DNA from: an uncultured Acidobacteriota bacterium
GTDB lineage: Bacteria; Acidobacteriota; Polarisedimenticolia; Polarisedimenticolales; JAIQFR01
Assembly (NCBI GenBank): GCA_937864465.1
Contig: CALMJU010000082.1
Coordinates: 41,155-105,154 of the forward strand
Reading direction: 5' to 3'
Length of the DNA: 64,000 bases
Program-made: the position numbers and the translations under genes
Shown: positions 1 through 39,909 of the stretch, in pieces
Numbering within the stretch: position 1 is the first letter of the stretch
Layout of the letters: each line of letters starts with the position of its first letter
The notes under the pieces: model-generated
What the model was told of the DNA's origin: nothing
The model's input: the letters and a program-made list of their open reading frames with translations, nothing else
Databases searched by the model: none

Positions 1-101
1 TGCTCCAGGCCCGGAAAATCCTCCGGGCCGGCCTCGAGCGGGAATACGGGCATCTGGTCCCGGGATCCGCCAAGGCGGCGGACCCCCAGGAGCGGTCGTG
101 A
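1..101 (+). CDS. Probable ECF sigma-70 family factor, C-terminal fragment (5' end outside window)
   Basis: ORF open at the window edge, codons from nt 3, ending TGA 99-101. The translation LQARKILRAGLEREYGHLVPGSAKAADPQERS looks like a region-4 tail. Its stop overlaps the GTG of the next gene (GTGA), which encodes an anti-sigma-like protein. Too short for a firm call. Confidence 0.4.
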   Translation, partial: LQARKILRAGLEREYGHLVPGSAKAADPQERS

Positions 102-553
102 GCCGCCACCCGGAGATCGAGGGCGCCGCGGGGTGCGGCCCACGGGATCGCGAGACGCTCGATCACGTCCGAAGATGTCCCGAGTGCCTCCGGGCGCTCG
201 CCGGGGAGGAGCCGTCGAGGCTCTTCGCGCTCCTCTCCTCCCGCCCGATCGACCCGGCGATCCTCGACGCGGTGTCGCGGGGCGTGCGCCGGGAGATTTC
301 GTCGGATGCGGCGCCGAGGCGCCCGGCCCGGAGCCGGGGGCTCGCGGTGGCGGCTGCGTGGGCGGCGGCCGCGGCGCTCGCGGGGCTCTTGCTGGTGCCG
401 CCGCGCCCGCCGGCGACGCGGGCATCCGTCGATCGCCCCGGGGGGCGGGCCGAGGTGGCGCTCGTGTCCTCGCCGGGGACGCCGGAGGTCGTGGACCTGT
501 CGGTGGGCGACGTGCAGCTCGTCATGATCTTCGATCGGGAGATGGATCTGTGA
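98..553 (+). CDS. Putative anti-sigma factor (zf-HC2-like motif, single TM helix)
   Basis: 151 aa ORF. It has an N-terminal H-x3-C-x2-C motif (HVRRCPEC) and a central hydrophobic helix (LAVAAAWAAAAALAGLLLV). It is translationally coupled on both sides (GTGA at 98-101 and 550-553). Confidence 0.6.
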   Translation: MSRHPEIEGAAGCGPRDRETLDHVRRCPECLRALAGEEPSRLFALLSSRPIDPAILDAVSRGVRREISSDAAPRRPARSRGLAVAAAWAAAAALAGLLLVPPRPPATRASVDRPGGRAEVALVSSPGTPEVVDLSVGDVQLVMIFDREMDL

Positions 554-1290
554 GCGGCCGGGGGGCGCGGCTTCTCGTCGCCGCCGCGGCGGCGCTCCTC
601 CTGGCGGGGTCGGCGGCCGTCGGGGCCGCGGCCGCGGGGCCGGAGGGGGCGGGGGCGATCCACGTTCGCGCGTACGAGGTCCGTCACCGGCCGCTCCGGG
701 ACGCGGCGGAGATCGTCGAGTCGGTCCTCTCCCCGGAGGGAACGCTGACCTTGAGGCCGAGGCTCCGGACCCTCGTGGTCCAGGACCGCGCCGACGTCCT
801 GGACCGGGTCGGCGAGCTGCTGGCAGGGTTCGACCTGCCTCCCCGGAACGTCGAGGTCACGTTCTCGCTCCTGCTGGGGACCGACCGCGCCGCGCGGGAG
901 CCCGGCCGCGAGCAAGCTCCGGCACCGCTGTCCCGGGAGGTCCGCGGGGTCACCGAGACCCTCGGCGACTTCACCAAGTGGACCTCCTACCAGCTGCTCG
1001 GGAGCCGCTCGGCCACGGGCAGCGAGGGGTCGGAGGTCGAGGCGCTCCTCTCGGAGGAGTACAGGGTTCGCTTCGAGGTCGAGTCGTACGACGAGGCGAG
1101 GGGGATCGTGAGGTTCCGCCGGCTGTCGCTGGAGCGGCTGGTCCCCGGGGAGGGCGGCGCGGCGCGGACGGAGGAGCTCTACACGGCGAGCGTCATCGTC
1201 GAGGCGGGGAAGATGCTGATGCTGGGATCGGCGAAGAGCCCGGGATCGCGCAACGCGCTGTTCCTGGCCCTCCAGGCGAGACCGAGGTAG
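550..1290 (+). CDS. Secretin-N (NolW-like) domain protein with N-terminal signal/TM segment and no secretin barrel
   Basis: GTG at 550 is in frame with track ORF 133..1290. The hydrophobic N-terminus is LLVAAAAALLLAGSAAVGAAAA. The segment IHVRAYEVRHRPLRDAAEIVESVLSPEGTLTLRPRLRTLVVQDRADVLDRVGELLAGFDLPP matches the secretin N-domain pattern (beta-alpha-beta-beta-alpha, ending near the D-x-P motif). Confidence 0.6.
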   Translation: MSGRGARLLVAAAAALLLAGSAAVGAAAAGPEGAGAIHVRAYEVRHRPLRDAAEIVESVLSPEGTLTLRPRLRTLVVQDRADVLDRVGELLAGFDLPPRNVEVTFSLLLGTDRAAREPGREQAPAPLSREVRGVTETLGDFTKWTSYQLLGSRSATGSEGSEVEALLSEEYRVRFEVESYDEARGIVRFRRLSLERLVPGEGGAARTEELYTASVIVEAGKMLMLGSAKSPGSRNALFLALQARPR

Positions 1291-1296: not shown

Positions 1297-2517
1297 ATGG
1301 CCGAATTCTTCTGCCGCGTGGCGGAGCCGACCGGGGAGATCGTCGAGCGCGTGTACAGCGCGGCGGACGAGGCCTCGCTCCGCCGCGACCTCGAGGACAA
1401 GGACCTTCTCGTCCTCGATCTCCGGCGCCGGAGCCGCGCCGTCCAGCTCCTGGCCCAGCTCGTCCGAATCCGCCCCCGGGTTTCGTCGCGGGAGTTCCTG
1501 TTCTTCAACCAGGAGCTCTCGGCGCTCATCCGTGCGGGGCTTCCGATCCTGACGAGCCTCGACATCCTCCTGGAGCGCCGGGGCAACCCGAGCTTCCGGC
1601 GGGCCCTCGCCGACATCCGCGAGCGGGTCAAGTCGGGGGAGATGCTCTCCGAGGCCTTCGCGGCGCAGGGCGACCTGTTCCCGCGGCTGTACGCCTCGAG
1701 CTTGGCCTCGGGCGAGCGCTCGGGCGAGCTGCCGACGGTGCTCAAGCGGTTCATCACCTACACGCAGACGGTCATGGCGGTGCGTCGCAAGGTGATCTCT
1801 GCGCTGATCTACCCGGCGATCCTGCTCTTCCTGTCGGTCGGCCTCGTCGTCCTCATGACCTTCTACATCATCCCGAAGTTCAAGGCGTTCCTCGACGACT
1901 TCGGGACGGAGCTCCCCGCCATCACGAAGGTGCTCATGGGGACGGCCTTCTTCGCCCGAGAGCACTGGCTCGTGCTCGTCGGGGGCGTCGTGGCGGCCTT
2001 CGTGGCCGCGGGGGCGTGGCAGCGGAGCGGGGCGGGCCGGATCGCCCTGGACCGCCTGAAGCTCAGGCTCCCGATCGTCGGGAGGGTGATCCACGACTAC
2101 GCGCAGAATCGCTTCACGAGGACGCTGGGGACGCTTGTGGCGGGAGGGATCCCGCTCGTCACGGCGCTCGAGCTCTCGGCCCGCGCGGTCGGCAACGCCC
2201 TCTTCGAGAGGGAGCTCCTGGCCGTTGCGGTGAAGGTCCGGGAGGGGCAGTCCCTCTGGGAGTCGCTCGAGCGCACGGGGCTGATCAGCGACATCACCGT
2301 CCAGATGATCAAGGTGGGGGAGTCGACGGGCTCCCTCGAGGAGATGCTCGAGAACGCGTCCACGTTCATGGACGAGGAGATCGACTACCGGCTCACCCGC
2401 GTGGTCGCGCTGATCGAGCCTCTGATGCTCGTGTTCATGGCGGTCATCGTCGGCGGGATGCTGCTGGCGATCTACCTCCCCTTGATCCGGACGTACGGCC
2501 AGTCGAGGATGGGCTGA
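1297..2517 (+). CDS. gspF: Type II secretion / type IV pilus platform protein (GspF/PilC family)
   Basis: 406 aa. It shows the duplicated GspF-type cytoplasmic domains and three TM segments, with typical motifs (FNQELSALIRAGLPIL, MIKVGESTGSLEEML). Confidence 0.93.
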   Translation: MAEFFCRVAEPTGEIVERVYSAADEASLRRDLEDKDLLVLDLRRRSRAVQLLAQLVRIRPRVSSREFLFFNQELSALIRAGLPILTSLDILLERRGNPSFRRALADIRERVKSGEMLSEAFAAQGDLFPRLYASSLASGERSGELPTVLKRFITYTQTVMAVRRKVISALIYPAILLFLSVGLVVLMTFYIIPKFKAFLDDFGTELPAITKVLMGTAFFAREHWLVLVGGVVAAFVAAGAWQRSGAGRIALDRLKLRLPIVGRVIHDYAQNRFTRTLGTLVAGGIPLVTALELSARAVGNALFERELLAVAVKVREGQSLWESLERTGLISDITVQMIKVGESTGSLEEMLENASTFMDEEIDYRLTRVVALIEPLMLVFMAVIVGGMLLAIYLPLIRTYGQSRMG

Positions 2518-2545: not shown

Positions 2546-4198
2546 ATGGCCGAGGAAGCGCGGGCGAAGGACGACAGGGCGGCGCCGCGGGTCGAGGCGG
2601 ACGCCGGCGAGGAGATCCTGTCCGAGGAGGTCCAGGCGCAGAAGCTGGCGGAGCGCCTCGAGATCGAGTACGTCGACCTCGAGCACTTCGCGATCGACCC
2701 GGAGCTGTTCCGCTCGCTGCCGGTCGACCTGATGTTCCGCTACAACTTCGTGCCGCGGCACCGGACCGAGACCGGGCTCACCGTCGTCGTGGCGGATCCC
2801 ACGGACGTCCTGATGATCGACGAGCTCGAGCTCCTCCTCGGATCCCCGATCGAGGTCTGCGTCGGGACGACGACGGCGATCCAGGAGATCCTCAAGAAGA
2901 GCGAGTCGTCGCAGCGGGTGCTCGAGGAGGCGACCGAGGAGTTCCGGATCCAGCTCGTCACCGAGGACGAGGAGACGGGGGAGGAGACCCTCTCCATCGA
3001 CAAGCTGACCTCGGACTCGTCGCCGATCATCAAGCTCGTGGACTCGACGATCTTCAACGCCCTGCAGCGGCGCGCCTCGGACATCCACATCGAGACGCGG
3101 GAGCGGGAGGTCGTGATCAAGTACCGGATCGACGGCGTCCTCTACCAGGCGATGGAGCCGATCGACAAGAAGTTCCACTCGACGATCATCTCGCGGATCA
3201 AGGTCATGTCGGAGCTCGACATCTCGGAGAAGCGCGTGCCGCAGGACGGCCGGTTCAAGCTCCGCGTGAAGGGACGGAACGTCGACTTCCGCGTCTCGAT
3301 CATGCCCAGCGTGCACGGAGAGGACTGCGTGATCCGCATCCTCGACAAGGAGTACACGAGCGAGGCGTTCGCCCACCTCAACCTCGACGTGTGCGGCTTC
3401 GAGGAGCGCGACCTGACGAGGATCCGGCGCTTCATCCGCGAGCCGTACGGGATGGTGCTCGTCACCGGGCCCACCGGCTCCGGAAAGACGACCACGCTCT
3501 ACGCGGCGGTGTCGGAGATCCGCACGGAGGAGGACAAGATCGTCACGATCGAGGACCCGGTCGAGTACCAGCTCCCCGGGATCACGCAGATCCCGGTCAA
3601 CGAGAAGAAGGGGCTGACGTTCGCCCGGGGCCTGCGCTCGATCCTCCGGCACGACCCCGACAAGATCATGGTCGGGGAGATCCGGGACGAGGAGACCGCG
3701 CAGATCGCGATCCAGTCCGCCCTGACGGGGCACCTCGTGTTCACGACGGTCCACGCGAACAACGTCGTGGACGTCGTCGGACGGTTCCTCAACATGAACG
3801 TCGAGCCGTACAACTTCGTCTCCGCGCTCAACTGCATCCTCGCGCAGCGGCTCGTCCGGCTGATCTGCGCGTCGTGCAAGCGTCCGGTGAAGGCGGACCG
3901 GGCGCTGCTGCAGGCCTCGGGGCTCGATCCGGCGCGCTACTCGGACTTCACGTTCCACGAGGGGAAGGGCTGCATCGACTGCAACGGGACCGGCTTCCGC
4001 GGCCGGACGGCGATCGCGGAGCTGCTGGACATGTCGGACCGGATCCGGGAGATGATCCTCCAGCGGAAGCCCGGGTCCGACATCAAGCGGGCGGCCAAGG
4101 AGGAGGGGATGACCTTCCTGCGCGAGGCGGCCCTGGCCAAGGTGTTCGCCGGGAAGACGTCGCTGCAAGAGATCAACAAGGTCACGTTCGTGGAGTGA
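2546..4198 (+). CDS. gspE: Type II secretion ATPase (GspE/PilB family)
   Basis: 550 aa with an N-terminal T2SSE_N-like domain. It carries Walker A GPTGSGKTT, Asp/His boxes and a tetracysteine motif (CASC...CIDC). The RBS GGAGGAGAG lies upstream. Confidence 0.95.
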   Translation: MAEEARAKDDRAAPRVEADAGEEILSEEVQAQKLAERLEIEYVDLEHFAIDPELFRSLPVDLMFRYNFVPRHRTETGLTVVVADPTDVLMIDELELLLGSPIEVCVGTTTAIQEILKKSESSQRVLEEATEEFRIQLVTEDEETGEETLSIDKLTSDSSPIIKLVDSTIFNALQRRASDIHIETREREVVIKYRIDGVLYQAMEPIDKKFHSTIISRIKVMSELDISEKRVPQDGRFKLRVKGRNVDFRVSIMPSVHGEDCVIRILDKEYTSEAFAHLNLDVCGFEERDLTRIRRFIREPYGMVLVTGPTGSGKTTTLYAAVSEIRTEEDKIVTIEDPVEYQLPGITQIPVNEKKGLTFARGLRSILRHDPDKIMVGEIRDEETAQIAIQSALTGHLVFTTVHANNVVDVVGRFLNMNVEPYNFVSALNCILAQRLVRLICASCKRPVKADRALLQASGLDPARYSDFTFHEGKGCIDCNGTGFRGRTAIAELLDMSDRIREMILQRKPGSDIKRAAKEEGMTFLREAALAKVFAGKTSLQEINKVTFVE

Positions 4199-4227: not shown

Positions 4228-5244
4228 ATGAACCCCGTTGCTTCCATCCTCGAGCCGCTGCGGCACCTCGACATCGAGCGCTGGGCGGGGCTGCGTCCGG
4301 CGTATCCGCCGGTCGCCGTCGAGTTCGGCCGCGGGGAGATCGTCCTCGCGAGGCTCAGGAGGAAGCGGCGCGCGGCGCCGGTCCTCGAGGCCCACGCCGT
4401 GCGCGGGCTCCCCGCGCAGGAGCCGCCCGGCCCCGCGCCGCACGCCGGTCCGACCCTCTCCGAGACGATCGGTTCGCGGCTGAGGGAGGTCCTCGAGGCG
4501 ACCGGGACCCGTCCGGGGAAGATCGCCCTCGTGCTCCCCGACAACCTGGCGCGCGTCTCCCTGATGAGCTTCCCCGAGCGGCCTCCGAACCGCAAGCACC
4601 TGGAGGAGATGATCCGGTTCAAGCTCCGGCGGGCCGTTCCGTTCCGGCTCGAGGAGGCCCTGCTGTCCTACCAGGTCCTGCCGGGGGACGGGCGCGGCGT
4701 GGACCTCGTCGTGGCGCTGATGCTGCGGTCGGCCGTGGAGCCGTACGAGCGGGCGGCGGAGGCCGCGGGAGCGCGGCCCGGCCTCGTGGATCTCAGCACC
4801 CTGGCCCTGTACAACCTGTGCCGCAGGGAGCTCGGTCGCGCCCGGTCGGGCGGGGAGGACGTCGCGCTCCTGAACTGCGCCGCTGGGTATTTCTCTCTGA
4901 TGATCGTCCGGGGATCGAGGCCCCTCTTCTACCGGTGCAAGTCGTTCGGGAGCGGGGAGGACGAGAGCGGCGCGGGGGCGGGAACTCTTTCGCGCGAGCT
5001 CGTGACCTCGCTGTCGTACTATCAGGAGAAGCTCGGGGGAGCGGGTATCGCCGCGACGATCGTGCGGACGGTCGCGGTGCCGTTCCCGGTCGTGGAGGAT
5101 CTCCTCGGCCGTCTGGGCCTCGGGGCGGTCGTCCCGCTGGATCTCGGGCGCTGTCTCGGGGCGGCGCCGGGGCCCGGGCTCGATCCGGAGGCGGCGCAGA
5201 GGATCGCGCCGGCCGTGGGCGCGGCGGTGGGCAGGGGCCTGTGA
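4228..5244 (+). CDS. pilM: PilM-like actin-fold pilus/T2SS assembly protein
   Basis: ATG at 4228 is in frame with track ORF 3391..5244. The sequence (ALVLPDNLARVSLMSFP...MIRFKLRRAVPF...ALYNLC) fits PilM/GspL-cytoplasmic-type proteins. Its position directly upstream of PilN/O-like genes supports the call. Confidence 0.75.
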   Translation: MNPVASILEPLRHLDIERWAGLRPAYPPVAVEFGRGEIVLARLRRKRRAAPVLEAHAVRGLPAQEPPGPAPHAGPTLSETIGSRLREVLEATGTRPGKIALVLPDNLARVSLMSFPERPPNRKHLEEMIRFKLRRAVPFRLEEALLSYQVLPGDGRGVDLVVALMLRSAVEPYERAAEAAGARPGLVDLSTLALYNLCRRELGRARSGGEDVALLNCAAGYFSLMIVRGSRPLFYRCKSFGSGEDESGAGAGTLSRELVTSLSYYQEKLGGAGIAATIVRTVAVPFPVVEDLLGRLGLGAVVPLDLGRCLGAAPGPGLDPEAAQRIAPAVGAAVGRGL

Positions 5245-6029
5245 TGCAAATCCTCGACCTGAACCTCGCCTCCCGGCCGTTCCGCAACAACACCATGCTG
5301 TGGCTCGGGCACGGCGTCGCGGTCCTGCTCCTCGTGGGGTTCTCGGCCTGGAATGCGCGGAGCTTCGTCTCCGAGGGGCGCCGCTACCGAGAGGCGAGGA
5401 ACGGCCTGCAGGGCGTGGAGCGGCGCCTTCAGGATCTCGACGAGCGGGAGCGGCGCGCCTCGGAGAGGACGGGGCGATTCGACCGGCGGGATCTCGAGGC
5501 GAGCACGGCGACGGCGAATGCGTTCATCGTGCGGAAGGCGCTCTCCTGGACCCGCTTGTTCAACCTGCTCGAGGCGGTCGTCCCGCCCGAGGTCCGGATG
5601 ACGGAGATCCGGCCGATCTTCCAGACGCAGCAGGGGGACGACGGGGCGCGGATCGCCGAGCGGGTCCCGATCGGCGTCGAGGGGAGAGCCCGCAGCCTCG
5701 AGGCGTTCCTGGAGCTCGAGCGGGCCCTGATCACGGACCGGCACTTCTCGCAGATCGAGCCCGAGAAGAGCGACGTGATCGAGGGCGGCGAGGTGCAGTT
5801 CGACGTACGTTTCCTCTACTTTCCCGAGGGGAAGCCCGTCGAAGGGGACGTGGTGGACCTTCCGCACGTCCTCGAGGCGGCGGCGGAGGAGGCCGCGAGT
5901 CCCCGTGATCTCGAGGCGCTCGAGCGCTCCAAGCAGGCGCTGCCCTCCCCGCAGCCTTCCGGCGCCTCGGCGCCGGAGGCGCCGCGGGGCCGGGCGACGC
6001 CGATCGCGCAACCGCGGAGGCCCCGATGA
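5244..6029 (+). CDS. pilN: PilN-like bitopic assembly protein
   Basis: ATG 5244 overlaps the pilM stop (TGATG). The N-terminus MQILDLNLASRPFRNN is followed by a TM helix and a coiled-coil. The C-terminus is Pro/Ala-rich. Confidence 0.7.
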   Translation: MQILDLNLASRPFRNNTMLWLGHGVAVLLLVGFSAWNARSFVSEGRRYREARNGLQGVERRLQDLDERERRASERTGRFDRRDLEASTATANAFIVRKALSWTRLFNLLEAVVPPEVRMTEIRPIFQTQQGDDGARIAERVPIGVEGRARSLEAFLELERALITDRHFSQIEPEKSDVIEGGEVQFDVRFLYFPEGKPVEGDVVDLPHVLEAAAEEAASPRDLEALERSKQALPSPQPSGASAPEAPRGRATPIAQPRRPR

Positions 6030-6646
6030 GCCGGCCGGGGAAGCTCCGGTTCGACGTCCGGCAGGCGGGCCGCTTCCTGCTGACGGCGTATCTCGCGGCG
6101 CTCGCCGCGAACGTGCTCGTGTACGTGGTGCTGGTCCGTCCTCGGGGGCAGGCGCTGCGGGAGATGCTGGACGAGGGCGGCACGGGGCAGGCGCGCGTCG
6201 AGGCGCGCGAGGCGGAGGTCGTCGCGAGGGAGACGTACGTCGCGGCGCTCGAAAAGGCGACCGAGGACCTGGAGACGCTGCGGACCGGCGTCCTGTCGAC
6301 GCGAGAGCGGCGGATGATCGAGGTCCAGCTCGAGCTGGCGCGCATCGCGAAGCAGTTCGGGATCAACCTGCAGCGGGTGAAGTACGAGAACGAGATCCTC
6401 GAGGACGGGGCGATCGAGCGCTTCGCGATGGTCGTGCCGCTCGAGGGCGGATACGCGAGCCTGCGGAAGTTCCTCCGGGCCGTGGAGGACTCGGACAAGT
6501 TCCTGGTCATCGAGCAGGTAGGGCTCGCGACGGCGCGCGACGGGGGCGCGCTGATCGAGCTGAACATCACGCTCGCGACCTACTTCGCGGACGAGTGGCT
6601 CCTCGGCGCTCCCGGGGCGGGACGCCGCGGATCGAGGAGGGCGTGA
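6026..6646 (+). CDS. pilO: PilO/GspM-like bitopic assembly protein
   Basis: 206 aa, joined to pilN by an ATGA overlap. It has a TM helix, a coiled-coil and a ferredoxin-like C-terminal region (FAMVVPLEGGYASLRKFLRAVEDSDKFLVIEQVGL), typical of PilO. Confidence 0.7.
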   Translation: MSRPGKLRFDVRQAGRFLLTAYLAALAANVLVYVVLVRPRGQALREMLDEGGTGQARVEAREAEVVARETYVAALEKATEDLETLRTGVLSTRERRMIEVQLELARIAKQFGINLQRVKYENEILEDGAIERFAMVVPLEGGYASLRKFLRAVEDSDKFLVIEQVGLATARDGGALIELNITLATYFADEWLLGAPGAGRRGSRRA

Positions 6647-7278
6647 TGGCCCGCAGGCTCTCGGTGCGCGAGGGAATCCTCCTCGGCCTCCTCGCGGCCG
6701 CGGGCGTCGGGTACGTCTGGTACGAGGCGAGGTCCACCGGCCCGGCTCGTCCCGGGAGGCGCGCCGGCGCCTCCAAGAAGGCGGGCGATCCGCTTCCGGA
6801 CCCGCCGAGGGTCCGGATGGACCTTCTGGCGGGCCGCGCGGAGAGCTACGACGGCGCAGGGAGGGACCTCTTCCAGTACTCGCAGCGCCCGCCGTCGGCG
6901 GCGGAGGTGCGGCGGCTTCGCGAGGAGGCGGAGCGCCGGCGGAAGGAGCTGGAGGAGGCGCAGCGGAGAGCCGCGGAGGAGGCGGAGCGCCGGCGCAAGG
7001 AGCAGGAGGAGGCGGCGAAGGTCGCGGTCCTCCACCCCGCGCCGCCCCCGCCGCCCCAGCCGCCGGCGATCACGCTGCGATATCTCGGATACCTCGGCCC
7101 CAAGGACGACCGGATCGTGATCCTCGAGGACGGGAAGGAGATGATCCTGGCCCGGAAGGGCGACGTCGTGAAGGGGCAGTTCCGAGTGGTCGACGTAAAG
7201 TGGGAGAGCGTCGTGATGGGATTCGTGCGGCCGGAGTTCAAGGGCCTGACCCGCGAACTGACGATGGGGCGCAAGTGA
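6646..7278 (+). CDS. PilP/GspC-like periplasmic protein (TM, charged coiled-coil, Pro-rich linker, small beta domain)
   Basis: ATG 6646 overlaps the pilO stop and is in frame with track ORF 5905..7278. The C-terminal segment ITLRYLGYLGPKDDRIVILEDGKEMILARKGDVVKGQFRVVDV resembles the PilP/GspC HR beta domain. Confidence 0.55.
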   Translation: MARRLSVREGILLGLLAAAGVGYVWYEARSTGPARPGRRAGASKKAGDPLPDPPRVRMDLLAGRAESYDGAGRDLFQYSQRPPSAAEVRRLREEAERRRKELEEAQRRAAEEAERRRKEQEEAAKVAVLHPAPPPPPQPPAITLRYLGYLGPKDDRIVILEDGKEMILARKGDVVKGQFRVVDVKWESVVMGFVRPEFKGLTRELTMGRK

Positions 7279-7300
7279 GACGGGCGCCGGGGGACCTGGC

Positions 7301-9742
7301 ATGATGAGGAAGCGGACGGCGGCGAAGGCGGCGGTGCTGGTCCTCGCCTGCGCGGCTCTGATCGGCTGCGCGGCGCAGAGCGCCTATCGGAAGGGCGAAT
7401 CGGCGTCGGGGCGGGAGGACTGGGACCAGGCCGTGATCGGCTACAGCAAGGCGCTCGCGCTCGACCCCGGAAACACGCGGTACGGGGTGGCTCTGGAGCG
7501 GGCCAAGCTGAAGGCCTCGGCGCTGCACTTCGAGAAGGGGAAGCGCTTCGCCTCGGCGAAGCAGTGGGAACTGGCCGCCGCCGAGTACCAGCAGACGCTT
7601 CTGCTGAACGCGGGGAACCAGTACGCCGCGAGCGAGCTCCAGCGAGCGCTGGCGGAGGTGCAGAAGCGCCAGCAGAGCCCCTCCGAGATCGAGCGGCTCA
7701 AGGCCAAGGCGAAACGGGAATCGCTGGAGCCTCCGAAGCTGTCCCCGAAGTCCAACATCCCGATCCTCCTGCAGTTCCGCGACCAGCCGATCGGGAAGAT
7801 CTTCGAGGCGATCGGGAAGGCGTCGGGGATCAACTTCATCTTCGACGACAAGACCGACCTCGCGAAGCCGATGACCGTCGACATCGGGAACGTGACGCTG
7901 GACAAGGCCCTCGACATCCTGATGCTCCAGACCAAGAACTTCTACAAGGTCATCGACGAGTCGACGCTCCTCGTGGCTCCCGACAACCGCCAGAAGCGGC
8001 AGGAGCTCGAGGACCAGGTCATCCGCACGTTCTATCTCTCGAACGGCGACGTGAAGCAGGTGCAGACGCTCCTCCGGACGCTCCTCAACACGCGGCAGAT
8101 CGCGGAGAACACGCCGCTCAACTCGGTGACGATCAAGGACACGCCCGACAAGGTCGCGATCGCGGAGAAGATCATCGAGGCGAACGACAAGGCGAAGGGC
8201 GAGATCGTGATCGACGTGGAGCTCCTGGAGATCAACCGCAACGTGGCGCGCAACTTGGGCATCGATCTCAGCTCGAAGGCGCTGAGCGTCGTCTACAGGG
8301 ACGGCGAGCAGAGCGTTCCCCTGAACAACTTGAGCGCGCTCCGGCAGCAGGGGAACTGGCTCCTCGGCCCGATCCCGAGCGTCGTGATGAACTTTCTCAA
8401 GAGCGACTCGGACAGCCGCACGATCGCCAAGCCGCAGCTGCGGGTGACGGAGGGGGAGAAGGCCGAGATCCTCATCGGCGAGCGGGTCCCGATCCCGACG
8501 ACGTCGTTCAACACGTCGACGACCGTGGGCAGCAACATCGTGCCGATCACTTCGTACACCTATCAGAACGTCGGGATCACGCTTCAGATCGAGCCGCGCG
8601 TCCATCACAACAAGGAAGTGACCCTCAAGATGGAGGTCGAGGTGTCGAGCATCACGGGAAGCGTGATCTCGACGGCGGGCCAGTCGCAGCCGATCATCGG
8701 CACGCGGCAGATCAAGTCGGTGATCCGGCTGAAGGACGGGGAGACCAATCTCCTCGCGGGACTCATCAAGCGCGAGGACACCGACTCGAGGTCCGGGGTC
8801 GTCGGGATCTCGGATATCCCGGGGATCGGACGGCTCTTCGGGAGCAACGAGCAGAGCAGGAAGGAGACGGACATCGTCCTGGCGCTGACCCCGTACATCA
8901 TCCGGATCCCGGACATCGGCGAGGAGGACCTGGCCGGCCTGTGGGTGGGCACCGAGGACAACATGCGTCTCAGGCTCCCGGCGAGGAACCCGTTCAACGA
9001 GTCGCCGTTCGGGAGCGGAGAGGAGCCCGAGCCTTCCGGGGCCGCTCCCGCAGGCGGCGAGAGCTCCTCGGGCGAGGCCGGGGGCTCGGCGGCCGCGGGG
9101 GCCGTCGCAGGCGGCGTCCTCGAGTCGTCCGACCGGGGGACCGGCGGCGGGGGGATCTCGAAGCGGGTCTCGAGCCCTGCCGACTCGGCGGAAGCGGCGG
9201 AGGCGCCCCCCGAGGAAGAGACGCCGCTGCCCGACGCCGGGGAGCCGGCGGCGGAGTCCCAGGAGGCGGCACCGCCCCCGGCTCCGGAGGGGGCGGACGA
9301 GGAGCGGGAGGAGCCGCTCACGCCCGCGATCGTCCGTCTCGTTCCGTCGGCGTCGTCGTACCGGGTGGGAGACCGGATCCTCGTGGACGTGCGGATCGAG
9401 AACGCGCAGGGGGTCGGCTCCGTCCCGTTCCACCTGACGTACAACCGGCAGGCGCTCGAGTGGATCCCGCCGGCGGCGCAGGGAACGTTCCTCGGCAGCG
9501 ACGGCATCGGGACGGTATTCCTGGCCAGCGACGCGTCCGGAGGCGGAGAGATCGTGGTCGGCCTGTCGCGGATGGGAGGGGGCGAGGGGGTCTCGGGCGC
9601 GGGATCGCTCGCGGCTTTCCAGTTCCAGGCGGTCGCGCCGGGCGACTGCGGCTTCGCGTTCACCGCGGCGAGCGTCAAGGACTCGCAGGCCCGGAACCTC
9701 CCGTCGACGTTCGTGACGGCGGCCGTGCCGGTCCAGCCCTGA
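7301..9742 (+). CDS. Secretin (GspD/PilQ family) with N-terminal TPR lipoprotein module and C-terminal cohesin-like module
   Basis: 813 aa. The lipobox is LACAALIGC. TPR-like repeats cover aa ~25-125, followed by secretin N-domains. The secretin core includes IAKPQLRVTEGEKAEILIGERVPIP...DIPGIGRLFGS...IVLALTPYIIR. An acidic Gly/Ser/Pro linker follows. The C-terminal ~140 aa (YRVGDRILVDVRIENAQGVGSVPFHLTYNRQALEW...) looks cohesin-like. Confidence 0.92.
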   Translation: MMRKRTAAKAAVLVLACAALIGCAAQSAYRKGESASGREDWDQAVIGYSKALALDPGNTRYGVALERAKLKASALHFEKGKRFASAKQWELAAAEYQQTLLLNAGNQYAASELQRALAEVQKRQQSPSEIERLKAKAKRESLEPPKLSPKSNIPILLQFRDQPIGKIFEAIGKASGINFIFDDKTDLAKPMTVDIGNVTLDKALDILMLQTKNFYKVIDESTLLVAPDNRQKRQELEDQVIRTFYLSNGDVKQVQTLLRTLLNTRQIAENTPLNSVTIKDTPDKVAIAEKIIEANDKAKGEIVIDVELLEINRNVARNLGIDLSSKALSVVYRDGEQSVPLNNLSALRQQGNWLLGPIPSVVMNFLKSDSDSRTIAKPQLRVTEGEKAEILIGERVPIPTTSFNTSTTVGSNIVPITSYTYQNVGITLQIEPRVHHNKEVTLKMEVEVSSITGSVISTAGQSQPIIGTRQIKSVIRLKDGETNLLAGLIKREDTDSRSGVVGISDIPGIGRLFGSNEQSRKETDIVLALTPYIIRIPDIGEEDLAGLWVGTEDNMRLRLPARNPFNESPFGSGEEPEPSGAAPAGGESSSGEAGGSAAAGAVAGGVLESSDRGTGGGGISKRVSSPADSAEAAEAPPEEETPLPDAGEPAAESQEAAPPPAPEGADEEREEPLTPAIVRLVPSASSYRVGDRILVDVRIENAQGVGSVPFHLTYNRQALEWIPPAAQGTFLGSDGIGTVFLASDASGGGEIVVGLSRMGGGEGVSGAGSLAAFQFQAVAPGDCGFAFTAASVKDSQARNLPSTFVTAAVPVQP

Positions 9743-9752: not shown

Positions 9753-10244
9753 ATGCTCCGGATCGGCGGGCGGGGAGGAGGACGGCGGGGCGTGACGCTC
9801 GTCGAGCTGGTGTGCGTCACCGCGATCGTGCTCGTCCTGGCCGGGATCGCCGTGCCCGTGGCCTCGACGGCCGTGAAGCGGCACAAGGAGCTCGAGCTCC
9901 GGCGCGCGCTCCGCGAGATCCGGGAGGCGATCGACCGTTTCCAGGCGGACGTCCAGCGGTTCCCGGGCATGCGCCAGACCGACATGAACGCGACGAACGA
10001 GGACGGCTACCCGGAGGAGCTGGAGTGGCTCTACCAGGGCTACGACATCGGCGACCAGAAGGGGACGAAGATCAAGTACCTGCGGAGGCTCCCGAGGGAC
10101 CCGATCACCGGAGCGCAGGACTGGGCGACCCGCTCCAGCCGGGACCGTCCCGACTCGACGTTCACGGACGGCATCAACATCTTCGACGTGCGGTCGACGA
10201 GCGAAGCGATCGCCCTCGACGGCACGCGGTACAGGGATTGGTGA
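9753..10244 (+). CDS. GspG-like pseudopilin (paralog 1)
   Basis: 163 aa. It has a prepilin-type leader and hydrophobic N-terminus (GRRG/VTLVELVCVTAIVLVLAGIAVP, Glu at +5). The GspG-like body includes ALREIREAIDRFQAD and PRDPITG. The RBS GAGGAGG lies upstream. Confidence 0.8.
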   Translation: MLRIGGRGGGRRGVTLVELVCVTAIVLVLAGIAVPVASTAVKRHKELELRRALREIREAIDRFQADVQRFPGMRQTDMNATNEDGYPEELEWLYQGYDIGDQKGTKIKYLRRLPRDPITGAQDWATRSSRDRPDSTFTDGINIFDVRSTSEAIALDGTRYRDW

Positions 10245-10257
10245 GGAGGGGCGACCG

Positions 10258-10680
10258 GTGAGGCTCGAGGGGGGAAGGATCCGGCGGAAGCCGGGCGGGG
10301 GGCTCGGGTTCACGCTCATCGAGCTGCTCGTCGTCGTGGCGATCATCGGGATCGTCGTCACGGTGGCGGCGGGCCAGTACATGCGGTCGATCCAGAAGGC
10401 GAAGGAGGCGGTGCTCCGGGAGGACCTGTACATCATGAGGACCGCGATCAACCAGTACTTCGCCGACAAGGGGAAGTACCCGTCGGACCTGCAGGCCCTC
10501 GTGGACGACAGCTACCTGAAGGCGGTCCCGACGGACCCGATCACGCAGAGCAGCAGCTCCTGGATCACGGAGCCCGCCTCGATGGACGATCGCGACATCT
10601 CCACGGAGCCCGGGATCGCCGACGTTCGAAGCGGCGCGACGGGTGAGGGATTGGACGGCACGAGCTATTCGGAATGGTGA
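10258..10680 (+). CDS. gspG: Major pseudopilin GspG
   Basis: 140 aa with a GTG start. The class III signal peptide is GGLG/FTLIELLVVVAIIGIV. The canonical GspG body is EDLYIMRTAINQYFADKGKYPSDLQALV...VPTDP. Confidence 0.88.
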   Translation: MRLEGGRIRRKPGGGLGFTLIELLVVVAIIGIVVTVAAGQYMRSIQKAKEAVLREDLYIMRTAINQYFADKGKYPSDLQALVDDSYLKAVPTDPITQSSSSWITEPASMDDRDISTEPGIADVRSGATGEGLDGTSYSEW

Positions 10681-10726
10681 GGCGGCGCCGCCGCGCGCCG
10701 CGCGCTCAGGGTCGAGGAGAAACGTC

Positions 10727-12145
10727 ATGAACAGCAGCTTCCGTCGTGCCGCCGCCGCGATCGCGGTCGCGGCGATCGCGCTCGTGTCGGGCTCTTGCGA
10801 GGACAACGACGTGTTGGCCCCCACCGGAACGACCATCGTCCTGTCCGCGAACCCGCCGCAGGCGGTGTTCGACGGCGAGGATCCGACGCCCGTCGAGGTG
10901 ACCCTGACGGCGCTGCTGCTGAGCGAGGACGGGTTCCCGCAAACCGGGATCGCGGTCGCCTTCTCGACGAGCGCCGGCACGCTGGCCTCCGGCGGGGCCA
11001 CGCTGGTCACGGACTCGACCAGCAAGGTGCAGGACGTTCTCACGGTCGAGGCCGACGCGCCGAGCTCGATCGAGGTGACGGCCCGGTCCGGATCGATCAC
11101 CGAGACGATCACGGTGACGAAGGTCGTCGGGGGAGTGGCGCCGACGGACGGGACGATCCAGGTGAGCGCGAATCCGGCGACGATCGTGATCGACCCGAAC
11201 GCGGGGGAGACGAGCGGCTCGGCGCAGATCGCGGCGGTCGTCTTCGACAGCCTCGGCGCGCCGCTGGCGGACATCGCGGTCCGCTTCCAGACGACCGCGG
11301 GGACGCTCGGCACGACGTCGCCGGTCCTCACGGACGCGGAGGGGATTGCGACGACCCTCCTGACGCTGAGGACCGAGGAGCCCGCCGAGGCGACGGTGAC
11401 CGCGACCTCCGGGGCCCTGTACTCGATCGTCGAGGTGACGAAGAGCGTGGTCGCGATGAACGAGGCCCCGGAGGCCTCGATCTCCGCGACCCCGCAGGAC
11501 GTCGTGCAGGCGGGGAGCCAGGTGATCTTCGACGGGAGCGGATCGGAGGACGCGGACGGCAGGATCGTCCGCTACACGTGGACGGTGACCTCCGACAGCG
11601 CGTGCTGCGGGTCCTCGCCCCCCGACAGCTGCGTCGATCCGTGCGCCGACGAGGTCGTGGTGAACACGTCGGCGCTCCCGCTCACCCGCATCTACCGCGA
11701 CGCTCCGCAGAACCTCTCGGTGACGCTCGAGGTCGAGGACGACGACGGGGCGACGGGAGTCCGGGTCCTCCCCTACCGGGTGGAGTGCTACAACCCGGCT
11801 CCCGTGGCCGACGCGGGCCCGAACCAGTCGCAGAACGCGGCGGCGCCGGGCGAGCCGGTGGAGATCGTCCTGAACGGGTCCTACACGACCGACAACCTGC
11901 CGATCGACGTGGACGAGACGCACTACCGTTGGAGCTGCGGCAACGGGACCGTGCCGGTCCCGCTCGTCGCGGGGGATTACCGTCGGGTGATCTGCAGCTA
12001 CACGCCTCTCGACGGGGCGTCCAACCAGTGGACCGCCACGCTGACGGTCTACGACAACGGCTCGACGGGGGCGCTGGTGGATGGCGTCTACCTCTGCCAG
12101 AAGTCGTCCTCGGACACCGCGGTGGTCACGCTGAACCTCCCGTGA
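10727..12145 (+). CDS. Lipoprotein with tandem bacterial Ig-like (Big_1-type) repeats and a PKD-like domain
   Basis: ATG 10727 is in frame with track ORF 10643..12145. The lipobox is LVSGSC. Three repeats follow the pattern ...A..SA/TTAGTL..... The PKD signature is FDGSGSEDADGRIVRYTWTV. Confidence 0.75.
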   Translation: MNSSFRRAAAAIAVAAIALVSGSCEDNDVLAPTGTTIVLSANPPQAVFDGEDPTPVEVTLTALLLSEDGFPQTGIAVAFSTSAGTLASGGATLVTDSTSKVQDVLTVEADAPSSIEVTARSGSITETITVTKVVGGVAPTDGTIQVSANPATIVIDPNAGETSGSAQIAAVVFDSLGAPLADIAVRFQTTAGTLGTTSPVLTDAEGIATTLLTLRTEEPAEATVTATSGALYSIVEVTKSVVAMNEAPEASISATPQDVVQAGSQVIFDGSGSEDADGRIVRYTWTVTSDSACCGSSPPDSCVDPCADEVVVNTSALPLTRIYRDAPQNLSVTLEVEDDDGATGVRVLPYRVECYNPAPVADAGPNQSQNAAAPGEPVEIVLNGSYTTDNLPIDVDETHYRWSCGNGTVPVPLVAGDYRRVICSYTPLDGASNQWTATLTVYDNGSTGALVDGVYLCQKSSSDTAVVTLNLP

Positions 12146-12175
12146 CGGGGGAAGAGGCGAGCGGGAGCCCGGCGC

Positions 12176-12916
12176 ATGCGGCGCGGAGACGATCGCGGAC
12201 ACCTGATGGTCGGACTGATGGTCGCGGTGGCCATCCTGGTGATCCTGTCCACCGTCGCGCTCCAGGCGTGGGAGGACATGAACCGCCGGGAGCTGGAAGC
12301 CGAGATGATCTTCCGCGCGCAGGACATCTGCCGGGCCCTCCGGCGCTACCGGCAGGACCACGGAGGGCAGCTTCCCCTGGAGTGGAAGCAGCTCGGCGAG
12401 CCGGGTACGAAGGGGCAGTACTACATCCGGAAGCTCTGGACCGACCCGCTCGTCAAGGACGGGAAGTGGGGGTTCCTCTACGCGACTCCGGGAGGCGGCG
12501 TCCTGGACCCGAATGCGCCGGTCGAGACGAGCCTGGTTCCGGGCGAGGAGCCGAAGAGCGAGCCGAAGTCGGCCTTCGGACCGTCCAAGCTGAACCCGGG
12601 CGAGGGGGGCGGCGCCGCGCAGGGCGAGGGAGGGCTTCCGATCGCGGGGGTCAAGTCGCTCTGCGCCAAGAAGCCCTTCCGCGTCCTGAACGACGAGTCC
12701 GATTACGCGAAGTGGCAGTTCACGGTCTTCGACCTGGACACCCCGGGCGGGGGCTTCCAGATCGGCGGGGGCAAGGGGCCGGGAAGCCGGGTCGGGCAAA
12801 CCGGGCCGGTCAGCCCGACCGGGCCCGCCGGCCTGACGCCGACCGGCCGGTCCGGCCAGGCCGGCCAGGGGTTCCCGGCGCGCCCGGGACAGAGGCGCAG
12901 CGGCGGCGGGCTCTGA
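12176..12916 (+). CDS. Atypical pseudopilin-like protein with Gly/Pro-rich C-terminal tail
   Basis: 246 aa. The N-terminal hydrophobic helix follows a Gly (RG/HLMVGLMVAVAILVILS) but has no Glu at +5. A GspG-like stretch (FRAQDICRALRRYRQDHGGQLP) follows. The last ~60 aa are G/P/Q-rich and low complexity. Confidence 0.55.
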   Translation: MRRGDDRGHLMVGLMVAVAILVILSTVALQAWEDMNRRELEAEMIFRAQDICRALRRYRQDHGGQLPLEWKQLGEPGTKGQYYIRKLWTDPLVKDGKWGFLYATPGGGVLDPNAPVETSLVPGEEPKSEPKSAFGPSKLNPGEGGGAAQGEGGLPIAGVKSLCAKKPFRVLNDESDYAKWQFTVFDLDTPGGGFQIGGGKGPGSRVGQTGPVSPTGPAGLTPTGRSGQAGQGFPARPGQRRSGGGL

Positions 12917-12946
12917 GCCCGGGGCGCGCACGCCGTCCGGCCGCGA

Positions 12947-35237: not shown

Positions 35238-37058
35238 TCACGCCCCCGCGAGGGCCCGTGCGCGAGATTCGATCTCCTCGACCGTCAGGCTCGCGCGCGA
35301 TCCCTGGCCGCGGCCGCTGACCACACTCTTGAGCACGCGGGCGGCGACGGCCGAGGCCTGCGCCACCGCGTCCGGGATGTCCTTCGGTCCCTGGCACACC
35401 CCCGCGACGTGGATCCCGCCGCGCTCGGTGCCCGTCGGGTCGATGTTGTAGTCCGTCTCGCGGAACCATCCGTCCTCGTCCCGGTCGATCCCGAGGATCC
35501 CGGCGAGCCGGTCGGAGGCGCACGCGGGCTCGAGGCCGACCGACAGGAGGACCATGTCCACGGGGAACTCCACGAGACGGTCCTTGAGGATGTCCTCGCC
35601 CTTGATCGTCATGCGGCCGTCCTTCTCGACGACCTTCGCCGAGCGGCCGCGAACGACGAAGACCTCCTCGAGGCGGATCCGCTCGAAGAACTCCTCGTAC
35701 CCCTTTCCGAACGCGCGCATGTCGATGTAGAACTCGTAGCAGACGGCGTCGGGGAGCTTCTCCTTGACCAGGTGGGCGAACTTCAAGGAGTACATGCAGC
35801 AGACCCTGCTGCAGTACGGGTTGTACTTCTTGTCCCGCGAGCCGACGCAGTGGACGATCGCGACGCTTCCGGGCCGGGGGCCCTCGGCGTCGAAGACCCA
35901 CTCGTCCTGCTTCGTGCGCTTGTTGCGCCGGAGCGTCTTCATGACGATCGCGCCGCCCGTCGGTCCGGACGCGTTCGTCAGCCGCTCGAACTCGAGGGCG
36001 GTGAGGACGTTGGGATGGACGCCGTAGCCGTAACGCTCGATCCTCCGGGCGTCGAAGACGTCGTAGCCCGTGGCCACGACGATGCTGCCCACCTCGATCT
36101 CGACCACCTCGTCGCGGTCGTCGAAATGGATCAGCTCCTTCGCGCACTTGCGGAGGCAGGCCCCGCACTTCTTGCCGCCGCTCAGGATGTACGTGCAGGC
36201 GGCGGCGTCGACCAGGTACGCGTTGGGCACCGCCTGGGGGAACGGCATGTAGATCGCCTTGCGCGTCGTGATCCCGCCGTCGAACTCGCTCGGGACCGCG
36301 ACGGGGCAGACCTCCATGCAGGCGTGGCACGCCACGCACGCGTCCGGGTCCACGAAGCGCGCCTTCTTCAGGACCTTCACGCGGTAGGCCCCCGGCTCCC
36401 CGGCGACGTCCTGCACCTCCGCGTAGGTCATCAGGTCGATCTTCTCGTGCTGCCCCACGGCCACCATCTTCGGCGTGAGGATGCAGGCCGCGCAGTCGAG
36501 CGTGGGGAACGTCTTGTCGAACATCGCCATGTGGCCGCCGATGGTGCCGGTCTTCTCGACGAGGTACACCTTCTGGCCCGCGTCGGCGATCTCGAGGGCC
36601 GCCTGGATGCCGGCCACCCCTCCGCCGATGACGAGCGTGGCCGGGTTCACCGCCGTGGGCCGGGGCGATGCCGCGAGGCCGAAGGGGACCCCGTGCACCG
36701 CGCAGGCGACGACGGCCTTCGCCCTCTCGGTGCCGTCGTCGGCGCCGGCCCCGTGCTGGCGGAACGAGGCGAGACGCACCTCCGTCGGCTCGCCGCCTGC
36801 GAGGGCGACGGCCCGGGTGAACGCCGGCTTGAAGTGACCGGGGGAATCGCCGGCCACGACGACGACCTTGAGGTCCCTCTTCTTGATCTCGTGAGCCAGG
36901 ACCTCCGGGTCCGGCGCGGGCCGCGGGGAGCGGACCTCGACGTGCGCGACACCGGGGAGCCCGCGCGCGTACTCCGCGACGGCGTCCCAGTCCACGGGCA
37001 TGGGAAGGGCCGCCTCCTTCTGGCAGAAGTAGACTCCGATCTTCTTCGGGACGCCCAT
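35238..37058 (-). CDS. HdrA-like flavoprotein (QmoA-like): degenerate N-terminal domain + FAD domain + inserted ferredoxin domain, no C-terminal ferredoxin
   Basis: 606 aa from ATG 37058. Motifs present are GGGVAGIQAALEI, FPTLDCAACILTPK, CSRVCCM and the inserted CVACHACMEVCP...CGACLRKC. The N-terminus reads IGVYFCQKE instead of the CxCGxN cluster motif. It ends after the FAD domain. Confidence 0.88.
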   Translation of the reverse strand: MGVPKKIGVYFCQKEAALPMPVDWDAVAEYARGLPGVAHVEVRSPRPAPDPEVLAHEIKKRDLKVVVVAGDSPGHFKPAFTRAVALAGGEPTEVRLASFRQHGAGADDGTERAKAVVACAVHGVPFGLAASPRPTAVNPATLVIGGGVAGIQAALEIADAGQKVYLVEKTGTIGGHMAMFDKTFPTLDCAACILTPKMVAVGQHEKIDLMTYAEVQDVAGEPGAYRVKVLKKARFVDPDACVACHACMEVCPVAVPSEFDGGITTRKAIYMPFPQAVPNAYLVDAAACTYILSGGKKCGACLRKCAKELIHFDDRDEVVEIEVGSIVVATGYDVFDARRIERYGYGVHPNVLTALEFERLTNASGPTGGAIVMKTLRRNKRTKQDEWVFDAEGPRPGSVAIVHCVGSRDKKYNPYCSRVCCMYSLKFAHLVKEKLPDAVCYEFYIDMRAFGKGYEEFFERIRLEEVFVVRGRSAKVVEKDGRMTIKGEDILKDRLVEFPVDMVLLSVGLEPACASDRLAGILGIDRDEDGWFRETDYNIDPTGTERGGIHVAGVCQGPKDIPDAVAQASAVAARVLKSVVSGRGQGSRASLTVEEIESRARALAGA

Positions 37059-37080
37059 GGGTCTAGACTCCGCTCCTCGG

Positions 37081-37098
37081 CAGGACGCGAGCGTCCTG
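37081..37098. repeat. Inverted repeat CAGGACGC-ga-GCGTCCTG (8-bp arms)
   Basis: Read directly from the sequence. It lies 23-40 nt upstream of the hdrA-like start at 37058, so it is in the 5' leader or operator region of the minus-strand operon. Function is unknown. Confidence 0.5.
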
Positions 37099-37125
37099 GA
37101 GACGGTTGGACGGTGGGGCGGGACG

Positions 37126-37143
37126 GCGACCGCGCGCGGTCGC
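37126..37143. repeat. Perfect 18-bp palindrome GCGACCGCGCGCGGTCGC
   Basis: Read directly from the sequence, in the 419-bp divergent intergenic region. Function is unknown, and GC-rich palindromes can arise by chance. Confidence 0.4.
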
Positions 37144-37400
37144 GGCGGTCCCCCTCGGGCCGGGAGCCCCGGCGCCGAAACGGAACGAGAACGAGGGCTG
37201 TCGGGATCGCATCCGGCCTCTTCGTCCGCCCACCCGGGAGGGGATCTCGTGGGGGACGTCGGCACGAGCCACGAACCGACCGCGGACCTCCTGGCCGCCG
37301 ATTCTACACCTTCTGGTCCGGAGTCAAGAGGCCCCTCAGGCCCCCGGCGAGAGGGCGCGAGACGTCTTCCCGACGGGCCGTTTCTCGACCGGCGGAGAGC

Positions 37401-37430
37401 TTGACACGGGTCTCGAGGGGGGGCTAGCGT
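37401..37430 (+). promoter_or_regulatory. Sigma-70-type promoter candidate (TTGACA-18-TAGCGT) for the receiver gene
   Basis: A perfect -35 TTGACA at 37401-37406, an 18-nt spacer, and a weak -10 TAGCGT at 37425-37430. It lies 48 nt upstream of ATG 37478. Confidence 0.3.
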
Positions 37431-37477
37431 ACCGGGCGGCATCGGTTTCGCCGCATCCGGCGTCACCCGAGGTGAAG

Positions 37478-37909
37478 ATGGAAGCCCCCAAGAAGCTCCT
37501 CATGATCGACGACGACAAGATCTTGCTCGATGTCTTCCGGGTCGTGTGCGAGGCGAAGGGGTACGAGTTCCACGGAGCGTGCTCCGCGGCCGAGGGGATG
37601 ACGAAGATCCTGGAGGTCGGACCGGACGCAATCATCCTGGACGTGATGATGGAGGACTTCGTCGCCGGGTACCGGGTGCTGAGCGAGCTCAGGACGCCCG
37701 GCCCCGGGTCCGAGTTCGCGCGGTTCTCCCGGGTCCCGATCATTCTCCTGACCGGCGTCGCGTCGAGGACGAACGCGTCGCTCCGCGACCGGGTCGGCAC
37801 GGCCCTCCTCCCCGTGGACGCGTACGTCGAGAAGCCGGTCGAGCCGGCGGAGATGCTGGCGGTGATCGACCGGGTCCTGGCCGCGAGGGGGCCGGACGCC
37901 GGGGCGTAG
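37478..37909 (+). CDS. Stand-alone response regulator receiver (CheY-like)
   Basis: 143 aa from ATG 37478. It has the acidic pocket MIDDD, the phospho-acceptor context AIILDVMM, and T/K positions (LLTGV, EKP). There is no output domain. Confidence 0.85.
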   Translation: MEAPKKLLMIDDDKILLDVFRVVCEAKGYEFHGACSAAEGMTKILEVGPDAIILDVMMEDFVAGYRVLSELRTPGPGSEFARFSRVPIILLTGVASRTNASLRDRVGTALLPVDAYVEKPVEPAEMLAVIDRVLAARGPDAGA

Positions 37910-37923
37910 GGCGGCAGGGAGCG

Positions 37924-39869: not shown

Positions 39870-39909
39870 CCGAACCTCGATCGCCGCCGCGGGGCGGCCG
39901 GAGGGCGCG

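Follow-up and report, generated by a model that had tools for sequence, protein, structure and literature searches.

A single open reading frame at 7301-9742 on the + strand of a 64,000-nucleotide stretch of DNA from an uncultured Acidobacteriota bacterium of soil or sediment (hereafter the window; G+C 71%) encodes an 813-aa secretin in which a lipobox, a tetratricopeptide repeat (TPR) module, an N0 domain, an N1 domain, the secretin core, an acidic motif, a tether and a cohesin domain follow one another. This three-module architecture, in which a TPR lipoprotein, a secretin and a C-terminal cohesin are joined, is real and conserved. The frame is uninterrupted, its G+C content at third codon positions (GC3) is 0.94, and a purine-rich GGGGGA lies upstream of its ATG. 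The module coordinates of the original prediction, which was made from the letters of the window, agree to within a few codons with the boundaries given by Pfam and by AlphaFold2 (AF2). We put at about one half the probability that the protein is the outer-membrane channel of a divergent machine resembling type II secretion systems (T2SS), acting as a self-anchored 'liposecretin' with tethered cohesins as docking modules in the periplasm.

The fusion of secretin and cohesin, for which a survey of public genomes had been proposed, is common to at least 120 clusters of homologues. These clusters, nearly all 780-840 aa in length, are recovered at 60-99% identity when the full 813-aa sequence is the query, and all carriers are uncultured Acidobacteriota (Candidatus Polarisedimenticolaceae and relatives). 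The cohesin stands at the extreme C-terminus of every one of the 120 best homologues (phmmer E values 1e-51 to 1e-75), and PF00963 is on record for 101 of them. The architecture is kept down to approximately 30% identity: it is complete in P0219 (47% identical to the query, in the same operon), in P0253 (30% identical over the full length) and in P0273-P0275, P0279 and P0280 (27-37% identical to P0253, 29-36% to the query). Distant cohesin-bearing secretins are encoded in other T2SS-like operons (L032, L033) or by orphan genes (L027, L034). The orphan genes follow genes for an extracytoplasmic function (ECF) sigma factor, an anti-sigma factor and a further TPR protein, with no GspE or GspF encoded within 10 kb.

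Homologue records, C-terminal placement, profile matches and the fold predicted by AF2 and compared by Foldseek all agree, so that the C-terminal domain, as modelled, is a true cohesin rather than a generic Ig/FN3 domain. Pfam Cohesin (PF00963) matches aa 681-777 with 21.7 bits against a cut-off of 24.1 bits, which the relatives that were scanned pass at 29-39 bits. With the domain encoded at 9293-9739 as query, a family profile of 30 sequences finds cohesins as its best matches among PDB sequences (3l8q, 3.8e-5; 5g5d, 1.5e-3; 2xdh, 8e-3). From the 30-sequence alignment AF2 predicts a nine-stranded jelly-roll beta-sandwich for the isolated domain (mean predicted local distance difference test score, pLDDT, 92.8), and aa 669-813 exceed 90 in the model of the full-length protein. 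All 50 of the best Foldseek matches in the PDB are cohesins; the top match is 2xdh, a non-cellulosomal cohesin of Archaeoglobus fulgidus (E 3e-9, TM scores 0.75/0.80). Whereas the cohesin fold proposed in the original prediction stands, its assignment to type I is not secure: the compact size is that of type I and target-normalised TM scores are somewhat higher for type I, but type II cohesins give similar E values and the best match is 2xdh. Among homologues the cohesin is 55-84% identical, compared with 56-82% for the TPR module. Conservation within the cohesin is highest in strands 3 and 6 and the VKD loop that follows, and lowest in strands 2, 4 and 9, a pattern that fits selection on the canonical dockerin-binding face when strands are mapped to faces by their order.

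The cohesin is joined to the secretin by what had been read as a linker of about 110 aa and is predicted to be a disordered tether (pLDDT 30-46 over aa 547-668). Among 111 homologues the tether is 72-150 aa long (median 112), rich in proline (22%), alanine (15%), glycine (13%) and glutamate (10%), and acidic (median net charge -12). No conservation is seen in its sequence.

At the N-terminus, the lipobox LIGC is confirmed as a signal peptidase II site: L-I-G-C23 is preceded by an n-region rich in lysine and arginine and then by a hydrophobic stretch, and Cys23 is invariant across 78 aligned homologues (local motif ..GC followed by AAQ). The TPR-like repeats noted behind it are recovered as six helices across aa 24-142 (pLDDT 94-98) in the full-length AF2 model, which was built on the alignment of the 78 sequences. 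Pfam TPR_2 matches aa 27-58 of the 813-aa protein below its cut-off (E 2e-4); TPR_1, TPR_2 and TPR_11 are on record for many homologues of the secretin, and the module's sequence matches in the PDB are designed consensus-TPR proteins. The likeness to the pilotins PilF, PilW and Tgl holds for the architecture, a lipoprotein with TPR repeats, but not for the sequence: specific homology of the module to PilF, PilW, Tgl or TadD was not detected, its matches being generic or designed TPR proteins and, below threshold, TraC. Scans of the operon with Pfam and NCBIfam recognise no separate pilotin gene. A role for the N-terminal module as a pilotin in cis, which would make the secretin self-piloting, is plausible because the lipidated secretin HxcQ pilots itself (a 2009 study, as cited in PMC10499894 and PMC12475490) and because the TPR lipoproteins PilF and TadD pilot secretins.

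The secretin core, which ends with TPYIIR535 near nucleotide 8905, matches Pfam Secretin (PF00263) at E 4e-41 (140.8 bits; cut-off 27.5 bits), and its top PDB sequence matches are GspD-type secretins of the T2SS. The NCBIfam equivalog for T2SS GspD (TIGR02517) scores 163 bits, below its cut-off of 351. Ahead of the core, Secretin_N exceeds its cut-off with 36.8 bits and STN is slightly under its own (24.3 bits; cut-off 28.4). Neither Pfam nor AF2 detects N-domains beyond N0 and a single N1-type domain, and an S-domain is not recognisable. S-domains bind pilotins anchored in the inner leaflet; here their position is occupied by the acidic motif at aa 536-558. Relatives that have no cohesin align with the query only to approximately aa 552, a span that covers most of this motif.

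The secretin gene is the tenth of an operon with identical gene order in about 20 species-level metagenome-assembled genomes (MAGs) of Acidobacteriota and in metagenome contigs. The order is ECF sigma factor, anti-sigma factor, secreted Secretin_N-domain protein, GspF and GspE (with an MshEN N-domain); PilM-like, PilN-like, GspM/PilO-like and GspC/PilP-like proteins and the 813-aa secretin; and two GspG-like pseudopilins, a Big_1/PKD lipoprotein, a conserved 246-aa protein and an M16 peptidase. The components score best as T2SS proteins in NCBIfam, all of them under the equivalog cut-offs, and judged by these similarities the machine is a divergent T2SS-like type IV filament system.

As the channel of such a machine, the secretin would be lipidated at Cys23 and sorted by the Lol pathway to the inner leaflet of the outer membrane, where its TPR module would lie beside the barrel as a pilotin in cis and may grip the motif behind the core in the way that TadD holds the RcpA tail in its groove. 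Secretin C-termini are periplasmic, and the C-terminal region is the usual site of pilotin binding; the TPR lipoprotein TadD accommodates the C-terminal tail of RcpA in its groove, and RcpA tolerates mNeon fused to its C-terminus (PMC10499894). The cohesin most probably lies in the periplasm, outside the barrel, rather than acting as an external dock, because the known topology of secretins places the C-terminus there; docking at the external pore, as envisaged in the original prediction, conflicts with this topology. If the C-termini emerge from the barrel into the periplasm, a 12-15-mer would carry a crown of 12-15 cohesins, each on a flexible tether with a contour length of perhaps 30-40 nm. 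These cohesins would serve as docking modules through their canonical 8-3-6-5 face and hold a partner near the entrance of the secretin. The partner may be a cargo or an accessory envelope protein, either one with a dockerin encoded elsewhere or the Big_1/PKD lipoprotein of the operon.

Several points weigh against the liposecretin with docking cohesins. Its lipidation, outer-membrane sorting, oligomer number and topology are extrapolated from Proteobacteria to Acidobacteriota; the 813-aa protein by itself lies under the Pfam cut-offs for cohesin and for TPR; and the conserved strands were placed on the binding face from strand order rather than from coordinates. A dockerin partner, as had been proposed, was not found: the window and 31 related loci, together 535 kb, were translated in six frames and searched with a regular expression for the calcium loop and with phmmer using a C. 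thermocellum dockerin, and neither a dockerin-type calcium-loop motif in any frame nor a dockerin near a secretin-cohesin gene came to light. There are also TPR-secretins without a cohesin (P0276, P0277, P0282-P0288); therefore TPR-secretins form the wider family, of which a subset has the cohesin as an accessory that does not belong to the basic secretin function. Some of the cohesin-less proteins are lipoproteins of approximately 600 aa (40% identity). P0282-P0288, from Acidobacteriia (approximately 684 aa), have an ordinary signal peptide without a lipobox and a proline-rich tail with a terminal cysteine motif (…DPCPYGMHSIGSQYGVLNCAFD); the gene for one of these, at L036 10001-12055, is an orphan beside multicopper oxidases.

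A more specific proposal, that the cohesin crown is a receptor which captures dockerin-tagged cargo or the Big_1/PKD lipoprotein in the periplasm for the T2SS-like machine, or which reports cargo or the state of the secretin to the ECF anti-sigma factor, is tentative, and we consider it rather unlikely. If true, it would be the first cohesin-based recruitment inside a diderm envelope and the first module docking substrates or signals in cis on a secretin. The Big_1/PKD lipoprotein is conserved beside the operon and recurs at the distant cohesin-bearing operon L033. In another lipoprotein, P0123 (L030 331-1167, 278 aa), a Big_1 domain that shares 48% identity with that of the operon lipoprotein is joined to a cohesin that shares 71% identity with that of the secretin. 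P0123 was rejected as an operon-internal domain swap of the 'Rosetta stone' kind, its gene lying immediately downstream of a tRNA gene (L030 47-125) on a 1.5-kb contig and not in a T2SS operon; a scan of metagenomes yielded one further short contig only. As a link between the lipoprotein and the secretin cohesin it is a hint at most.

The window encodes one cohesin only and no dockerin, carbohydrate-active enzymes are not found in the operon, and a scaffoldin is not found in the neighbourhood; the locus thus differs from a cellulosome or a scaffoldin. The sole classic dockerin seen stands beside a distant multi-cohesin protein. At L038, a 1207-aa protein with a terminal dockerin (DVDGNGAVDNTDLL...DVDKSNAIDNTDLL; 5537-9160, - strand) adjoins a five-cohesin, membrane-anchored, scaffoldin-like protein (10001-12934), and this contig of 63% G+C looks like the site of a non-cellulosomal cohesin-dockerin pair. 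Its link to the secretin is weak because its cohesins are 28-32% identical to that of the secretin. Multi-cohesin proteins in general, which are 22-34% identical, owe their high rank in the profile search to summed domain scores.

The cohesin profile, compared with 1.84 billion representative proteins, matches 6063 of them at E values of 1e-3 or less. Among single-domain relatives, the nearest are lipoprotein cohesins that stand alone (170-200 aa) and proteins in which an N-in transmembrane helix is followed by a low-complexity linker of approximately 200 aa and a C-terminal cohesin. One of the former, a 175-aa lipoprotein at L022 9911-10438 that is 54% identical to the secretin cohesin, has a transposase gene as its neighbour, and its MAG also carries a full operon (L026). 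The P0170 family, exemplified at L028 722-1801, consists of proteins of approximately 340-390 aa with an N-terminal membrane anchor, a linker of approximately 200 aa rich in proline, alanine and glycine, and a C-terminal cohesin; its neighbour at this locus is a 217-aa lipoprotein that is weakly cohesin-like. Tethering to the envelope in the closest relatives points to a general role of these cohesins as tethered binders in the cell envelope, and the stand-alone lipoproteins and membrane-anchored proteins hint at a wider network of envelope-tethered cohesins in Acidobacteriota and other environmental bacteria.

Such stand-alone lipoproteins, with nearly identical cohesins and remote from any secretin, tell against a structural or assembly role, in which the cohesins would bind each other, the TPR or N-domains of their own protein or the cell wall, and so form an extra periplasmic ring or a clasp that steadies or positions the secretin and replaces the S-domain and the pilotin. 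A poorly conserved, disordered tether of 72-150 aa would be odd for a fixed ring, and the full-length AF2 model gives the cohesin no confident contact with the other domains (predicted TM score 0.35). Even so, pilotins usually bind the C-terminal region of secretins, the TPR module is present in cis, and the C-terminal appendage varies within the TPR-secretin family from none to a proline-rich tail with a cysteine motif to a cohesin. We regard a structural role as unlikely.

The relatives anchored by an N-in transmembrane helix, hence held at the inner membrane with a periplasmic cohesin, tell against a further alternative, according to which the cohesin arrives at the cell surface by means of its tether, for instance through its own channel, and keeps secreted dockerin proteins by the pore mouth in the manner of an anchoring scaffoldin. 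Cohesins act in this way in cellulosomes, all of the closest folds are dockerin-binding modules, a tether of approximately 112 residues is long enough in principle, and the Big_1/PKD lipoprotein encoded in the operon is potentially displayed at the surface. However, secretin structures and pilotin biology assign the C-terminus to the periplasm and to a place outside the barrel (PMC10499894), there is no precedent for a folded domain (approximately 3 x 4 nm) that travels around the N-rings and then through a pair of gates, and no dockerin was found near any operon examined, all of which makes surface anchoring improbable. A role like that of FecA/FecR in cell-surface signalling, in which the anti-sigma factor would be contacted at its short periplasmic tail by the cohesin or by the STN-like N0 domain and the state or load of the secretin would control the ECF sigma factor, is more doubtful still: the sigma pair lies directly upstream in Polarisedimenticolia operons and also at the orphan loci L027 and L034, and N0 matches both STN and a FecR_C-like domain, but the cohesin-bearing operons L032 and L033 have no sigma pair, anti-sigma factors from different clades show poor conservation of their periplasmic parts, and similarity to STN is normal for the N0 domain of any secretin.

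Other genes of the operon are listed in Table 1, in which the frames between 4.2 and 7.3 kb were set by GC3 phase. ECF sigma and anti-sigma genes are paired at 1-553 of the window and at L027 7402-8635, L034 6965-8180 and L031 1400-2788; a short beta-like tail (VVDLSVGDVQLVMIFDREMDL) is conserved at the end of the anti-sigma factors from Polarisedimenticolia-type operons. The sole recognisable feature of the 246-aa protein at 550-1290, the first gene ahead of that for GspF, is its Secretin_N-type ring domain, and this protein might add a ring below the short secretin. MshEN domains are of a type that binds cyclic di-GMP; the presence of one on the GspE-type ATPase hints, as read from the sequence, at second-messenger control of the T2SS-like machine. 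The tandem pseudopilins at 9753-10680 have a common C-terminal end, ...DGT(R/S)Y..W, and minor pseudopilins of the GspH, GspI, GspJ or GspK type were not recognised near them. Among the remaining proteins, only the 246-aa protein at 12176-12916 has a pilin-like hydrophobic N-terminus.

Elsewhere in the window, genes at 35238-43571 (- strand) encode the large and small subunits of a NiFe hydrogenase between two HdrA-like FAD/Fe-S proteins of approximately 740 aa, which looks like an electron-bifurcating module of the Mvh/Hdr type in an acidobacterial genome. A second ATPase of the T2SSE/PilT family (483-aa open reading frame) is encoded at 50434-51885 (- strand), distant from the operon, and an 894-aa protein encoded at 45951-48635 has SPOR and SpoIID domains (peptidoglycan binding and remodelling).

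Table 1. Features of the 813-aa secretin and of the surrounding operon, in coordinates of the window
Feature	Coordinates	Strand	Basis
Anti-sigma-like membrane protein (151 aa), preceded by the 3' end of the ECF sigma gene	98..553	+	Synteny with L001 and L003; zf-HC2 in L031 and L027 equivalents
Secreted 246-aa protein, Secretin_N-like domain	550..1290	+	Pfam; conserved in operon
GspF/PilC-type platform protein	1297..2517	+	Pfam T2SSF; NCBIfam GspF best
GspE-type ATPase, MshEN N-domain	2546..4198	+	Pfam T2SSE, MshEN; NCBIfam GspE and PilB scores similar
PilM-like protein	4228..5244	+	Pfam PilM_2
PilN-like bitopic protein (261 aa)	5244..6029	+	Frame by GC3 profile; weak PilN match of L031 homologue
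GspM/PilO-like protein	6026..6646	+	Pfam T2SSM_b; NCBIfam GspM
GspC/PilP-like protein (210 aa)	6646..7278	+	Weak NCBIfam GspC_delta; transmembrane segment, coiled coil, C-terminal beta domain
Secretin: signal peptide with lipobox L-I-G-C23 (aa 1-23)	7301..7369	+	Sequence; Cys23 invariant in homologues
Secretin: TPR-like helical module (aa 24-142), approximately three repeats and capping helix	7370..7726	+	Pfam, AF2, PDB sequence matches
Secretin: N0/STN domain (aa 158-227)	7772..7981	+	Pfam STN 177-227, FecR_C-like 157-222; AF2 beta-alpha-beta fold
Secretin: single N1-type ring domain (aa 230-300)	7988..8200	+	Pfam Secretin_N 242-299, E 4.5e-9
Secretin: core (aa 301-535)	8201..8905	+	Pfam Secretin 366-535, PDB sequence matches, Foldseek secretins
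Secretin: conserved acidic motif IPDIxEEDLxxLWVGTEDNMRLR (aa 536-558)	8906..8974	+	Near-invariant columns in 78-sequence alignment
Secretin: disordered acidic tether rich in Pro, Ala, Gly and Glu (aa 559-674)	8975..9322	+	AF2; composition of 111 homologues
Secretin: cohesin domain (aa 675-813)	9323..9739, stop 9740-9742	+	AF2, Foldseek, profile against PDB sequences
GspG-like pseudopilin (163 aa)	9753..10244	+	N_methyl motif, GspG
GspG-like pseudopilin (140 aa)	10258..10680	+	N_methyl, T2SSG
Big_1/PKD lipoprotein (472 aa), candidate cargo or partner	10727..12145	+	Pfam Big_1, PKD; lipobox VSGSC
Conserved 246-aa protein, pilin-like hydrophobic N-terminus	12176..12916	+	Sequence; conserved synteny

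One polypeptide here joins three functions that usually belong to separate parts, namely the secretin, the TPR pilotin and the S-domain or partner, and it bears on the targeting and assembly of secretins outside Proteobacteria. The recognition of folded cargo by T2SS-type machines has long been a puzzle, and a docking domain tethered to the secretin would offer a direct handle on it. The cohesin is already present in automated annotation, NCBI having named some members 'cohesin domain-containing protein [Candidatus Polarisedimenticolaceae bacterium]', and no publication on a fusion of secretin with cohesin or of TPR with secretin was found in the literature searched, where the hits for secretin with cohesin were papers on cellulosome display and one review. 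The GspD of Myxococcus xanthus also has a long C-terminal region (aa 710-863; PMC12475490).

Among the known systems closest to the 813-aa protein is the T2SS secretin GspD/PulD/XcpQ (PF00263; 5wln, 6hcg, 5wq7), with which it shares the secretin core, the N0/STN domain and the N1 ring domain, and its operon shares GspE, GspF, GspM-like and GspC-like proteins and GspG-like pseudopilins with the T2SS. Unlike GspD, it has only N0 and one further N-domain, no recognisable S-domain, a predicted lipidation, an N-terminal TPR module and a C-terminal tether with a cohesin. Like HxcQ, it has a lipobox of its own, so that a separate pilotin may be unnecessary, the lipidation being predicted in the present case; HxcQ is not known to have a TPR module or a C-terminal cohesin. 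It resembles the TPR pilotins PilF, PilW and Tgl of type IVa pili and TadD of the Tad system (8odn) in that a lipobox is followed by TPR repeats with a predicted site in the inner leaflet beside the secretin, and it differs from them in having the module in cis, as a fusion, and in the module's shorter length of approximately three repeats. With 2xdh and the type I and type II cohesins of cellulosomes (PF00963) its C-terminal domain shares a nine-strand beta-sandwich, a single module of approximately 140 aa and profile similarity; unlike them, it is borne by a secretin of a diderm bacterium, probably in the periplasm.

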